The notes beneath the pieces are model-generated. The model was not told the origin of the DNA. It did no database searches and worked only from the letters and a program-made list of their open reading frames with translations. From assembly GCF_013122565.1 (NCBI RefSeq), contig NZ_CP053258.1: a stretch of 64,000 nt of DNA. One strand, 5' to 3'. Made by a program: the position numbers and the translations under genes. Shown piece by piece: positions 15,598 through 45,604 of the stretch (position 1 is its first letter; every line of letters begins with the position of its first letter). The DNA comes from Escherichia coli. GTDB taxonomy: Bacteria; Pseudomonadota; Gammaproteobacteria; Enterobacterales; Enterobacteriaceae.

Positions 15598-16629
15598 ATG
15601 GAAAGTACGCCGAAAAAAGCTCCTCGCAGTAAATTCCCTGCTCTGTTAGTGGTTGCGTTGGCGCTGGTTGCCCTTGTTTTCGTTATCTGGCGCGTAGACA
15701 GTGCGCCGTCAACTAATGACGCTTACGCGTCAGCAGATACCATTGATGTGGTGCCGGAAGTCAGCGGTCGCATTGTAGAACTGGCGGTCACCGACAACCA
15801 GGCGGTGAAACAGGGCGATTTGCTGTTCCGCATCGACCCGCGCCCGTATGAAGCCAATCTGGCGAAAGCTGAAGCCTCCCTCGCGGCGCTGGATAAACAA
15901 ATTATGCTCACCCAGCGTAGCGTTGACGCGCAACAGTTTGGTGCCGACTCGGTTAATGCCACGGTAGAAAAAGCCCGTGCCGCCGCGAAACAGGCCACAG
16001 ATACATTACGCCGCACCGAGCCATTACTGAAAGAAGGTTTTGTCTCAGCGGAAGATGTTGACCGTGCAAGAACGGCGCAGCGCGCCGCAGAAGCGGATCT
16101 TAATGCCGTATTGTTACAGGCGCAGTCAGCCGCCAGCGCCGTCAGCGGCGTCGATGCGCTGGTGGCGCAACGTGCGGCGGTCGAAGCGGATATTGCCCTG
16201 ACCAAACTGCATCTGGAAATGGCGACCGTTCGCGCGCCGTTTGATGGCCGGGTCATTTCCCTCAAAACCTCCGTCGGGCAATTTGCTTCTGCCATGCGCC
16301 CTATTTTTACCCTAATCGACACTCGTCACTGGTACGTGATCGCCAACTTCCGCGAAACCGATCTGAAAAATATTCGCTCAGGTACACCCGCAACGATTCG
16401 CCTGATGAGTGACAGCGGCAAAACCTTCGAGGGTAAAGTGGATTCGATTGGCTACGGCGTGCTACCAGATGACGGCGGCCTGGTGCTGGGCGGCCTGCCA
16501 AAAGTGACTCGCTCTATTAACTGGGTCCGCGTTGCCCAGCGTTTTCCGGTCAAAATCATGGTCGATAAACCTGACCCGGAAATGTTCCGCATCGGCGCTT
16601 CGGCAGTCGCTAATCTTGAGCCGCAATAA
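15598..16629 (+). CDS. mdtN: Efflux pump membrane fusion protein MdtN
   Basis: HlyD/AaeA-like periplasmic adaptor, 343 aa. Confidence 0.85.
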   Translation: MESTPKKAPRSKFPALLVVALALVALVFVIWRVDSAPSTNDAYASADTIDVVPEVSGRIVELAVTDNQAVKQGDLLFRIDPRPYEANLAKAEASLAALDKQIMLTQRSVDAQQFGADSVNATVEKARAAAKQATDTLRRTEPLLKEGFVSAEDVDRARTAQRAAEADLNAVLLQAQSAASAVSGVDALVAQRAAVEADIALTKLHLEMATVRAPFDGRVISLKTSVGQFASAMRPIFTLIDTRHWYVIANFRETDLKNIRSGTPATIRLMSDSGKTFEGKVDSIGYGVLPDDGGLVLGGLPKVTRSINWVRVAQRFPVKIMVDKPDPEMFRIGASAVANLEPQ

Positions 16630-18680
16630 TGAGCGCGCTCAACTCCCTGCCATTACCGGTGGTCAGGCTGCTGGCGTTCTTTCATGAAGAGTTAAGCGAG
16701 CGGCGACCAGGCCGCGTGCCGCAGACCGTGCAACTCTGGGTAGGCTGCCTGCTGGTGATTCTGATCTCGATGACTTTTGAGATCCCTTTTGTGGCGTTAT
16801 CGCTGGCAGTGCTGTTTTACGGTGTTCAGTCGAACGCGTTTTACACCAAATTTGTGGCGATCTTGTTTGTGGTTGCCACGGTGCTGGAGATCGGCAGCCT
16901 GTTTTTGATCTACAAATGGTCATACGGCGAACCGTTGATCCGATTGATCATCGCCGGACCGATCCTGATGGGCTGCATGTTTTTGATGCGCACCCATCGG
17001 CTGGGACTGGTCTTTTTCGCCGTCGCCATTGTCGCCATTTACGGGCAAACCTTCCCCTCCATGCTCGACTATCCGGAAGTGGTCGTGCGCTTAACGCTGT
17101 GGTGTATCGTTGTTGGCCTCTACCCGACGTTATTGATGACGTTAATCGGGGTGCTGTGGTTTCCCAGTCGTGCCATTTCGCAAATGCATCAGGCGCTTAA
17201 TGATCGGCTTGATGATGCCATTAGCCACCTGACGGACAGCCTCGCACCGCTACCCGAAACGCGGATTGAAAGAGAGGCGCTGGCGCTGCAAAAACTCAAT
17301 GTCTTTTGCCTCGCGGACGATGCCAACTGGCGAACTCAAAGCGCATGGTGGCAAAGCTGTGTGGCAACGGTAACCTACATTTACTCGACGCTGAATCGCT
17401 ACGATCCCACCTCTTTTGCTGATTCTCAGGCAATTATTGAATTCCGACAAAAATTAGCTTCAGAAATCAACAAGCTGCAGCATGCCATTGCCGAAGGTCA
17501 GTGCTGGCAAAGCGACTGGCGGATCAGTGAAAGTGAAGCGATGGCAGCACGGGAATGTAACCTGGAGAATATCTGCCAGACGTTGTTACAACTGGGTCAG
17601 ATGGACCCGAATACGCCGCCAACGCCCGCAGCCAAACCGCCATCAATGGCCGCCGATGCTTTTACCAATCCAGACTATATGCGCTACGCGGTAAAAACAC
17701 TGCTCGCCTGTTTGATCTGTTACACCGTCTACAGCGGCGTGGACTGGGAAGGCATTCACACCTGTATGCTGACCTGCGTGATCGTCGCTAATCCAAATGT
17801 CGGTTCGTCGTACCAGAAGATGGTGCTGCGTTTTGGCGGGGCCTTTTGCGGCGCGATTCTGGCGCTGTTATTCACGTTATTGATCATGCCCTGGCTGGAC
17901 AATATTTTCGAATTGCTGTTTGTGCTGGCACCGATTTTCCTGTTGGGCGCATGGATTGCCACCAGCTCTGAACGCTCTTCTTATATCGGCACACAGATGG
18001 TGGTTACCTTCGCGCTCGCCACGCTCGAAAACGTTTTTGGCCCGGTGTACGACCTGGTGGAAATTCGCGATCGCGCCCTGGGTATCATCATTGGTACCGT
18101 GGTGTCCGCGGTGATTTACACCTTTGTTTGGCCTGAAAGTGAAGCGCGCACACTGCCGCAAAAACTGGCTGGCGCGCTGGGTATGTTAAGTAAAGTAATG
18201 CGGATCCCACGCCAGCAGGAAGTCACGGCTCTGCGCACTTATCTGCAAATTCGTATAGGTCTGCATGCGGCGTTTAATGCCTGTGAAGAGATGTGCCAAC
18301 GCGTGGCGCTGGAGCGTCAACTGGACAGCGAAGAACGCGCCTTACTGATTGAACGTTCGCAAACGGTTATTCGTCAGGGCCGCGATATTCTTCACGCCTG
18401 GGATGCCACCTGGAATTCGGCGCAGGCGCTGGATAACGCACTACAGCCGGACAGAGCAGGTCAGTTTGCCGATGCCCTGGAGAAATACGCTGCCGGTCTG
18501 GCAACCGCACTCAGCCGTTCTCCTCAAATAACGCTCGAAGAAACACCCGCTTCGCAGGCCATCCTGCCCACCTTATTAAAACAGGAGCAACACGTCTGCC
18601 AGCTTTTCGCCCGCTTGCCAGACTGGACAGCCCCGGCATTAACGCCCGCCACGGAACAGGCACAAGGAGCCACGCAATGA
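16629..18680 (+). CDS. mdtO: Efflux pump inner-membrane component MdtO (FUSC family)
   Basis: 683 aa polytopic protein; TAATG overlap with mdtN. Confidence 0.85.
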   Translation: MSALNSLPLPVVRLLAFFHEELSERRPGRVPQTVQLWVGCLLVILISMTFEIPFVALSLAVLFYGVQSNAFYTKFVAILFVVATVLEIGSLFLIYKWSYGEPLIRLIIAGPILMGCMFLMRTHRLGLVFFAVAIVAIYGQTFPSMLDYPEVVVRLTLWCIVVGLYPTLLMTLIGVLWFPSRAISQMHQALNDRLDDAISHLTDSLAPLPETRIEREALALQKLNVFCLADDANWRTQSAWWQSCVATVTYIYSTLNRYDPTSFADSQAIIEFRQKLASEINKLQHAIAEGQCWQSDWRISESEAMAARECNLENICQTLLQLGQMDPNTPPTPAAKPPSMAADAFTNPDYMRYAVKTLLACLICYTVYSGVDWEGIHTCMLTCVIVANPNVGSSYQKMVLRFGGAFCGAILALLFTLLIMPWLDNIFELLFVLAPIFLLGAWIATSSERSSYIGTQMVVTFALATLENVFGPVYDLVEIRDRALGIIIGTVVSAVIYTFVWPESEARTLPQKLAGALGMLSKVMRIPRQQEVTALRTYLQIRIGLHAAFNACEEMCQRVALERQLDSEERALLIERSQTVIRQGRDILHAWDATWNSAQALDNALQPDRAGQFADALEKYAAGLATALSRSPQITLEETPASQAILPTLLKQEQHVCQLFARLPDWTAPALTPATEQAQGATQ

Positions 18681-20143
18681 TCAATCGTCAACTTTCACGT
18701 CTGCTGTTGTGCATCATTCTCGGCAGCACGACGCTGATTTCCGGCTGTGCCCTGGTACGTAAGGATTCTGCGCCTCATCAACAGCTCAAACCGGAACAAA
18801 TCAAACTGGCCGATGATATTCATCTTGCCAGCTCCGGCTGGCCGCAGGCGCAGTGGTGGAAACAACTCAATGACCCGCAGTTGGATGCCCTGATCCAACG
18901 GACGCTAAGTGGTTCACACACCCTCGCCGAAGCGAAACTGCGGGAAGAAAAAGCGCAGTCCCAGGCCGATTTGTTAGATGCTGGTTCACAGTTGCAGGTG
19001 GCAGCGTTAGGGATGCTTAACCGCCAACGTGTCTCGGCGAACGGCTTTTTAAGCCCTTATGCGATGGATGCGCCCGCACTGGGGATGGACGGGCCGTACT
19101 ATACGGAAGCCACAGTAGGTTTGTTTGCCGGATTGGATCTCGATTTGTGGGGTGTGCATCGCTCAGCGGTTGCCGCCGCCATTGGCGCGCATAATGCCGC
19201 GCTGGCAGAAACCGCAGCAGTAGAGCTATCGCTGACCACGGGCGTAGCGCAGCTTTATTACAGTATGCAGGCCAGCTATCAGATGCTCGATCTGTTAGAA
19301 CAAACTCGCGATGTGATTGATTACGCGGTAAAAGCGCACCAGAGTAAAGTGGCGCACGGTCTGGAAGCGCAAGTGCCTTTCCACGGCGCGCGGGCACAGA
19401 TTCTGGCGGTCGATAAACAAATTGCTGCCGTTAAAGGGCAAATCACCGAAACGCGAGAATCTCTGCGCGCATTGATTGGCGCGGGAGCCAGCGATATGCC
19501 GGAGATCAAACCGGTGGCATTACCACGAGTCCAGACCGGCATTCCGGCGACACTCTCTTATGAGTTGCTCGCCAGACGCCCGGATCTGCAAGCGATGCGC
19601 TGGTATGTTCAGGCGTCATTAGATCAGGTGGATTCCGCGCGGGCGTTGTTCTACCCGAGCTTTGATATCAAAGCGTTTTTCGGCCTTGATGCCATCCACC
19701 TGGATACCTTATTCAAAAAAACCAGTCGCCAGTTCAACTTCATCCCGGGTCTGAAATTGCCGCTGTTTGACGGTGGACGGTTGAATGCCAATCTCGAAGG
19801 CACTCGCGCCGCCAGCAACATGATGATTGAACGTTACAACCAGTCAGTACTGAACGCGGTGCGTGACGTTGCCGTCAACGGCACGCGTCTGCAAACGCTC
19901 AACGACGAGCGAGAAATGCAGGCTGAACGCGTGGAAGCCACGCGCTTCACCCAGCGCGCAGCCGAGGCCGCCTATCAACGCGGCTTAACCAGCCGCTTAC
20001 AGGCTACCGAAGCCCGGTTGCCAGTGCTTGCCGAAGAGATGTCATTACTGATGCTGGACAGCCGCCGGGTGATCCAAAGCATTCAGTTGATGAAATCGCT
20101 GGGCGGCGGGTATCAGGCAGGTCCCGTCGTCGAGAAAAAATAA
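18677..20143 (+). CDS. mdtP: Outer-membrane efflux lipoprotein MdtP (TolC/OprM family)
   Basis: Lipoprotein signal (LISGC); 488 aa; ATGA overlap with mdtO. Confidence 0.85.
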   Translation: MINRQLSRLLLCIILGSTTLISGCALVRKDSAPHQQLKPEQIKLADDIHLASSGWPQAQWWKQLNDPQLDALIQRTLSGSHTLAEAKLREEKAQSQADLLDAGSQLQVAALGMLNRQRVSANGFLSPYAMDAPALGMDGPYYTEATVGLFAGLDLDLWGVHRSAVAAAIGAHNAALAETAAVELSLTTGVAQLYYSMQASYQMLDLLEQTRDVIDYAVKAHQSKVAHGLEAQVPFHGARAQILAVDKQIAAVKGQITETRESLRALIGAGASDMPEIKPVALPRVQTGIPATLSYELLARRPDLQAMRWYVQASLDQVDSARALFYPSFDIKAFFGLDAIHLDTLFKKTSRQFNFIPGLKLPLFDGGRLNANLEGTRAASNMMIERYNQSVLNAVRDVAVNGTRLQTLNDEREMQAERVEATRFTQRAAEAAYQRGLTSRLQATEARLPVLAEEMSLLMLDSRRVIQSIQLMKSLGGGYQAGPVVEKK

Positions 20144-20150
20144 AATGTCT

Positions 20151-20180
20151 GCCGCGTGATGGCTGTCACGCGGTATTTCG
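20151..20180 (+). terminator. Hairpin terminator after mdtP
   Basis: CCGCGTGATGGCTGTCACGCGG inverted repeat followed by a T-rich stretch. Confidence 0.4.
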
Positions 20181-20273
20181 TTTCGTCACGTCAAAACTGA
20201 CGACAGCCTGTTTTTCGTCAGAGTTTTGAATAAATAGTGCCCGTAATATCAGGGAATGACCCCAAATAAAATG

Positions 20274-20289
20274 TGGCATAAAAGATGCA
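20274..20289 (+). promoter_or_regulatory. Sigma54 (-24/-12) promoter of fdhF
   Basis: TGGCAT-N6-TGCA with GG and GC at the canonical 11-bp spacing, about 50 bp upstream of the fdhF ATG. Confidence 0.65.
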
Positions 20290-20340
20290 TACTGTAGTCG
20301 AGAGCGCGTATGCGTGATTTGATTAACTGGAGCGAGACCG

Positions 20341-45178: not shown

Positions 45179-45604
45179 TGCTATCAATTTCCTGCCTGTT
45201 TATACCCGGCCATTGCAAGGTGAAAACCCTGGGCACCGACGTCTTTAGATAAATCTTACGGTATAAATAGCACTTTTTCCTGATTTGAAATTGATACCTT
45301 TTTAATCGTCATCTGGATAAAAATAATTCATTGATATTCAAATTAATTTTCTTCAGGAATGCAGGGCGGCGGGAAGATATGCCCTTAATGCCACAGAAAA
45401 ACCACATAATCTGTACAGCAATAAAAGTCACGACCTAATCTGGCTAACAAACAATCAATTGTGATATAGTTCACAAATTAATGAAACAAACAGAGTGTTT
45501 CATTTTTGTGTTCTGCAAGCCCCGCGATAGCCAGAGTGTACCACGCCTCCCGTGAACAACGCCGCGCTGTCCAGGGCATCGGCTCTTTTCAGAGGAATTG
45601 TTTG

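Follow-up and report, generated by a model that had tools for sequence, protein, structure and literature searches.

The 197-bp spacer between mdtP and fdhF of E. coli in all likelihood holds four elements, two of which are interleaved: a terminator for mdtP, a CRP site, an FhlA enhancer and the sigma-54 promoter of fdhF. The stem of the putative terminator and the CRP site occupy the same 16 bp. The sigma-54 promoter and the FhlA enhancer of fdhF are already known, and because both are textbook material their confirmation adds little, while a terminator stem that overlaps a CRP site is a small new observation of modest weight. The locus lies in a 64,000-nucleotide stretch of E. coli DNA, which as a whole is called the window here. 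The 601 bases at 19900-20500 are found with at least 95% identity in 5419 of 5426 complete E. coli genomes, where mdtP and fdhF are annotated, and the spacer shows a single-base difference, at 20265, from both K-12 MG1655 and ETEC H10407. The features to which the text refers are as follows, negative positions being counted from the predicted fdhF start.

18677-20143, plus strand: mdtP coding sequence, 488 aa, from the open reading frame list and annotated as mdtP in those 5419 genomes
20141-20143, plus strand: mdtP stop codon TAA, from the open reading frame list
20150-20175, plus strand: putative mdtP intrinsic-terminator hairpin TGCCGCGTGATGGCTGTCACGCGGTA, from the terminator scan (RNA fold -18.1 kcal/mol, z -2.9)
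20155-20170 (centre about -137.5), no strand assigned: CRP-type palindrome CGTGATGGCTGTCACG, from the identical 16-mer in a CRP ChIP-seq table and a position weight matrix (PWM)
20176-20186, plus strand: T-rich tail of the putative terminator, TTTCGTTTCGT, from the terminator scan; the first TTTCGTCA repeat of the enhancer begins in its 3' part
20181-20204 (-119 to -96), no strand assigned: distal FhlA enhancer TTTCGTCACGTCAAAACTGACGAC, 80-99% conserved, holding TCGTCA/TGACGA and the palindrome CGTCA-N4-TGACG
20206-20229 (-94 to -71), no strand assigned: proximal FhlA enhancer GCCTGTTTTTCGTCAGAGTTTTGA, 70-99% conserved, with the second TTTCGTCA copy
20241-20253 (-59 to -47), no strand assigned: conserved block CCGTAATATCAGG, a possible bending-protein site, 70-90% conserved across genera
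20273-20289, plus strand: sigma-54 promoter GTGGCATAAAAGATGCA, equal to ChIP-seq site OS41, with support from genomic SELEX and Salmonella ChIP-chip and at least 90% conservation
20300-20340, plus strand: predicted fdhF 5' UTR, from a published start prediction; its segment TTGATTAACTGGAGC is conserved
20329-20332, plus strand: Shine-Dalgarno sequence GGAG within the predicted 5' UTR
20341-22488, plus strand: fdhF coding sequence, annotated as fdhF and split in the open reading frame list at an in-frame TGA
20758-20760, plus strand: the fdhF selenocysteine codon (UGA in the RNA), the in-frame TGA that splits the reading frame
20753-20807, plus strand: fdhF SECIS element, Rfam SECIS_2, 87 bits

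The original prediction had placed inverted TCGTCA/TGACGA repeats inside a hairpin right after mdtP, which would then serve as a terminator and an activator site at once. The location given for these repeats was refuted, as the terminator-like hairpin is formed by another inverted repeat, with the perfect arms CCGCGTGA (20152-20159) and TCACGCGG (20166-20173). This hairpin begins 7 nt past the mdtP stop codon and has an 11-bp stem, in which 20150-20160 pairs with 20165-20175 around the loop GGCT, followed by the tail TTTCGTTTCG, whose T-tract is broken by CG. It shares with intrinsic terminators a GC-rich 11-bp stem, a 4-nt loop and a T-rich tail, but unlike the usual ones its stem doubles as a palindrome for a transcription factor, and its tail enters the enhancer of the next gene. 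For comparison, 80 fdhF loci from different species were fetched and 78 distinct Enterobacteriaceae upstream regions were scored for conservation. The mdtP gene lies immediately 5' of fdhF in only 11 of the 80 loci (Escherichia, Salmonella arizonae, Kluyvera, Superficieibacter and Pseudocitrobacter), and in 3 further loci it is found 5' as a remnant or at a greater distance; the remaining loci have other neighbours, in many cases a response-regulator gene that runs divergently from a start about 256 bp ahead of fdhF. In all 12 mdtP-adjacent sequences, that is the window and the 11 loci, the hairpin at this position folds with -15.7 to -20.1 kcal/mol, whereas one of -15.7 kcal/mol or stronger was found in just 1 of 60 other loci, whose median is -6.4. 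Hairpin strength thus differs with mdtP adjacency (Mann-Whitney p = 3e-8), although the statistics of this and the other species comparisons of hairpin, CRP site and mdtP adjacency ignore kinship. The hairpin also covaries across species, with 91% of cells pairing compared to 18-58% in controls with a slid partner; both members are changed in 4 pairs, a compensatory example being CCGCATGA/TCATGCGG in Kluyvera cryocrescens. The T-richness of the spacer after the stem is 0.40 in the mdtP-adjacent species and 0.31 elsewhere. A published Term-seq supplement, in which mdtP 3' ends were sought, holds no mdtP or fdhF entries. We infer that the hairpin at 20150-20175 with its T-tract is the intrinsic terminator of mdtP.

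The idea that the TCGTCA/TGACGA inverted repeat at 20183-20203 is itself both the mdtP terminator hairpin and the FhlA site is highly improbable. Its arms, 20183-20188 and 20198-20203, are perfectly complementary according to the repeat finder, as had been claimed, and they lie 40 bp past the mdtP stop codon. However, the RNA fold of this repeat is at the level of shuffled sequence (-9.8 kcal/mol, z -0.65), CAGCCTG and not a T-tract comes next, the terminator scan found the upstream hairpin with its tail as the sole terminator-like site, and about 60 species that have no co-directional upstream gene conserve the repeat as well. Even less credence can be given to the idea that the conserved blocks are not protein-binding DNA but structured RNA, for example a small RNA or an element of the mdtP 3' UTR. 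An 87-nt stretch does fold as two hairpins with a z of -2.7, but the conservation does not depend on which gene lies upstream or on its direction, the arms are conserved in sequence rather than covarying, and Rfam matches the SECIS alone.

According to published ChIP-seq, CRP binds the DNA of the hairpin core in vivo. In that study, which was done in the one strain ETEC H10407, CGTGATGGCTGTCACG was assigned to fdhF and is among 111 high-confidence targets. When CGTGATGGCTGTCACG was located in the RefSeq record of the H10407 genome, the published peak centre was 206 bp off the motif; as an offset of 160-206 bp was seen in all 6 ChIP sites checked, this is a matter of coordinate convention and does not contradict the assignment. 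On a PWM made from the other 106 sites in the table, whose median is 12.9 bits, CGTGATGGCTGTCACG scores 12.97 bits and ranks 3 of 63,985 window positions. Of the 63 loci without an adjacent mdtP, 54 have conserved the pentamer GTCAC of the hairpin's 3' arm at a distance of 19-24 bp upstream from the enhancer core, and therefore it is not simply a part of the terminator. Among 62 loci that have neither an adjacent mdtP nor the hairpin, 35 have their best CRP-PWM match at the same offset. The CRP-like sites in these 35 loci comprise 22 distinct sequences with the consensus TTYAAYC-NNN-GTCACA and score 6.5-11.7 bits, compared to a 95th percentile of 5.9 for the background. The distal GTCAC was also considered as the start of the divergent gene in Enterobacter and Kosakonia, but this was rejected since that gene begins about 94 bp further upstream. 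In Citrobacter (L017, L019, L020, L036 and L040) there is a second GGTCACA 14 bp upstream of the distal GTCAC and about 36 bp ahead of the enhancer core, which makes a direct repeat in this genus.

What CRP does at this site is a separate question from its binding. It is rather unlikely that the hairpin is a terminator only and that the occupancy by CRP is incidental, with no role in the control of fdhF. Such a reading draws on the count of mismatches of CGTGATGGCTGTCACG to the CRP consensus, which is at the chance level, and on several mdtP-adjacent species that keep the hairpin and have lost the CRP match, with scores of -2.0 to 4.7 bits (3.2 in L027; also L015, L028 and L049). Against it stand the high-confidence ChIP peak at the site, the CRP-like 16-mers at the same offset in the 35 loci described above, the same layout at hyf, and the report that a cya crp strain has fdhF among its most strongly down-regulated genes, an effect which the authors of that report attribute to supercoiling. 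A different reading of the conserved distal GTCAC(G/A), at 20165-20170, is that it is an additional FhlA half-site rather than a half-site for CRP. GTCACG is indeed repeated directly at 20165 and 20185, 20 bp or two helical turns apart, with the second copy in the FhlA core, and half-sites of the GTCA type are characteristic of upstream regions that depend on FhlA. Nevertheless, the species without the hairpin conserve a full 16-bp CRP-like frame with TCACA as its right half, and it is CRP to which ChIP-seq assigns this 16-mer, so that we regard an extra FhlA half-site as quite unlikely. The conservation and the parallel with hyf suggest instead that CRP may have a co-activating or architectural role at fdhF, a role that we hold as possible and at best on a par with its absence.

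The parallel with hyf is as follows. At hyf, whose sigma-54 promoter likewise depends on FhlA/HyfR, a CRP site listed in the ChIP-seq table lies 16 nt upstream of a CGACAC half-site, and at fdhF this distance is 13 nt. The two sites differ in that the one at hyf is near-consensus, scores 19 bits and is outside any terminator, whereas the one at fdhF, with 13 bits, makes up the stem of the putative mdtP terminator. In the K-12 hyfA upstream region (L004 1504-1552), the CRP site CGTGATCAAGATCACA comes 16 nt before the palindrome GCGACAC-GG-GTGTCGAAT.

The enhancer had been predicted at the TCGTCA repeats, and here the prediction was supported by a conserved block, by its fixed distance from the promoter and by a half-site that is common to the hyc-hyp, hydN and hyf regions. 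The sequence quoted in the prediction, TTTCGTCACGTCAAAACTGACGAC, is present at 20181-20204, with TGGCAT 70-93 bp further downstream. The conserved block TCG[T/A]CACGTCA-N4-TGACGA-N9-TTTTCGTCAG-GTTTTG corresponds to 20183-20228 and is 80-99% conserved in the 78 distinct Enterobacteriaceae upstream regions, and it is kept whichever gene lies upstream, be it mdtP, the divergent response regulator or another. Among 74 loci, 63 have 87 bp between the enhancer core and the -24 element, and in 8 the interval is shorter by roughly one helical turn, at 78-79 bp. Since the block is conserved whatever its neighbour and keeps a fixed distance from the promoter, it belongs to fdhF and its helical phase with the promoter is kept, which gives it the appearance of an enhancer for a sigma-54 activator. 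Within the enhancer region TTTCGTCA occurs twice, 32 bp apart, TCGTCAG and AGTTTTGA of the proximal enhancer are inverted against 20191-20203, and the repeat finder gave CTGACGA/TCGTCAG and TCAAAACT/AGTTTTGA as further inverted pairs. The hexamer TCGTCA is present three times in the enhancer, and a hexamer occurring three times is not beyond chance (593 of 2000 shuffles). Across the whole spacer there are 12 inverted 6-mers compared to 1.7 expected, a number that was reached in 1 of 1000 shuffles.

A half-site PWM built from the fdhF orthologues (TTTCG[A/T]CAC) found its best matches in the K-12 hyc-hyp, hydN and hyf upstream regions with empirical P values per region of 0.026, 0.008 and 0.015, respectively, and in hydN and hyf the matches are in inverted pairs. 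Smith-Waterman alignments of the fdhF enhancer with these three upstream regions were at the shuffle level. Like fdhF, the divergent hyc-hyp, hydN and hyf regions of E. coli combine a sigma-54 promoter with TCG[A/T]CAC and GTCA-type motifs on its upstream side. Their arrangement differs, however: the palindromes of hydN and hyf read TCGWCAC-N2-GTGWCGA, while in fdhF TCGTCAC precedes CGTCA-N4-TGACG, and the second TTTCGTCA is 32 bp away. The published PWM for FhlA, derived from 13 characterized sites, has its best match in the spacer at 20189-20202 with 8.0 bits, but the window contains over 25 sites with higher scores. The consensus CATTTCGTACGAAATG, attributed to Leonhartsberger 2000, is matched at 9 of 16 positions, which is no better than at irrelevant positions, and its left half TTTCGT has three occurrences. 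Because the site models fit only weakly, the assignment to FhlA is based on position, conservation and the literature and not on motif scores.

The block at 20181-20229, whose centre is about 107 bp upstream of the predicted start, fits the known upstream activating sequence (UAS) of FhlA, and its centre agrees with the UAS at about -110 that the 1989 deletion work of Birkmann and Bock reportedly found at fdhF. The binding of FhlA to this UAS and the need of the UAS for formate induction are established. The description of the fdhF sigma-54 promoter with its FhlA-dependent UAS, at this very locus, is said to go back to Birkmann and Bock in 1987-1989, Schlensog in 1994 and Leonhartsberger in 2000.

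A -24/-12 element before fdhF was found as claimed, with TGGCAT-N6-TGCA at 20274-20289 and the TGCA end 51 bp before the ATG at 20341. The 16-mer TGGCATAAAAGATGCA at these positions on the plus strand has the GG/GC spacing of TGGCAC-N5-TTGCA and is oriented towards fdhF, with GG at 20275-20276 (-25/-24) and GC at 20287-20288 (-13/-12). The pattern is no rarer than chance, with 1 match in the window compared to 0.9 expected, and on a sigma-54 PWM the promoter scores 13.4 bits and is third in the window, while the best score in shuffled windows averages 15.9. As neither the pattern count nor the PWM is beyond chance, the support for the promoter is taken from conservation, which is at least 90% for the element in the 78 distinct Enterobacteriaceae upstream regions, and from published binding data. 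The 17-mer at this locus is identical to site OS41 of a sigma-54 ChIP-seq study, which the table of that paper gives as experimentally confirmed in EcoCyc, and so the sigma-54 reading was upheld. The study places the OS41 motif upstream of fdhF with a FAT score of 41, and in the extract of its table OS41, listed for fdhF, is among the stronger peaks. The published start prediction is 41 bp before fdhF, which is window position 20300, 19 bp past the motif centre. The mdtP-fdhF spacer was also selected in genomic SELEX (gSELEX) with the RpoN holoenzyme, and in Salmonella the fdhF orthologue was bound in ChIP-chip and is 29-fold dependent on sigma-54. The CCGTAATATCAGG block in the interval between enhancer and promoter is missing from the clade in which the enhancer-to-promoter distance is 9 bp shorter. 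This block has a loose likeness, by eye only, to the IHF consensus. Downstream of the promoter, a conserved 5'-UTR segment GCGCGTATGCG(C/T)GA at 20303-20316, within 20296-20324, can form a small hairpin, the fold of which has a z of -0.79 and is at the shuffle level.

The claim of dual use stands only in a modified form, supported by a stem that is also the CRP site and by a tail that runs into the FhlA enhancer; what did not stand was the hairpin named and the protein assigned to it. The overlap of the FhlA block with the terminator is confined to the T-tract, where the first TTTCGTCA begins with TTTCGT (20181-20186).

A probable sequence of events at this locus would be that transcription of mdtNOP stops at the hairpin at 20150-20175 and the T-tract that extends to about 20186, and that this termination would insulate fdhF and hold the elongating polymerase off the enhancer. 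As double-stranded DNA, the hairpin core CGTGA-N6-TCACG at 20155-20170 is occupied by CRP at about -137.5, from where it might affect fdhF. The sigma-54 holoenzyme is bound at the -24/-12 promoter at 20273-20289, and FhlA, which published work has established as the formate-responsive activator of fdhF, binds 20181-20229 upon activation by formate and, using ATP, remodels the closed complex of this holoenzyme; transcription would start near 20300. The remodelling step follows from the established literature on fdhF together with the conservation described here. We tentatively propose that the 26-bp element could work in two forms, as RNA in the terminator of mdtNOP and as DNA in a conserved CRP site that aids the FhlA enhancer at fdhF. 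A CRP-like site (TTYAAYC-NNN-GTCACA) is present at this position across Enterobacteriaceae, and in those lineages where mdtP abuts fdhF its left half may have been remodelled to pair with the right half, thereby creating the terminator. That some lineages, such as Kluyvera cryocrescens and Pseudocitrobacter, would then have kept the pairing and given up recognition by CRP suggests a trade-off between the two functions.

The arrangement would be an instance of compact, overlapping signals, in which a terminator insulates the tightly controlled anaerobic fdhF gene from the efflux operon upstream, and its stem is a global regulator's site that abuts the enhancer. If CRP acts here, fdhF would join hyf as a promoter of the sigma-54/FhlA type under catabolite control, and the series of species would offer a natural separation of terminator function from CRP function. 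If the layout with CRP beside the enhancer is truly shared with hyf, CRP would be a general co-regulator of sigma-54 promoters that depend on FhlA or HyfR.

Some other sites were seen in the window. An exact 11-nt direct repeat, AAATAAAATGT, at 20138-20148 and 20264-20274 brackets the segment with terminator and enhancer, one copy being across the mdtP stop codon and the other abutting the -24 element; since E. albertii has only 9 of the 11 bases of this repeat, it is probably a chance occurrence in A-rich sequence. The top match to the sigma-54 PWM in the window is TGGCAGACGTGTTGCT at 18586-18601 on the minus strand, with 15.0 bits, which is antisense at the end of the open reading frame 16629-18680 that precedes mdtP and is presumably mdtO; this site is absent from the main text and tables of the published sigma-54 ChIP-seq paper. 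The sequence TGGCATGATTCTTGTA at 60140-60155 on the minus strand is the same, base for base, as the motif published for the pspG promoter (OS40) from sigma-54 ChIP-seq. A perfect CRP-type core is present in the strong site TGTGATATAGTTCACA at 45460-45475 in the yjcB-pdeC region, and it is absent from the ETEC CRP table. Strong CRP-type sites that are listed in the ETEC CRP ChIP-seq table are TGTGATCATCCGCACA at 59841-59856 (pspG-qorA) and TGTGATCTTGCGCATA at 52084-52099 (aphA).
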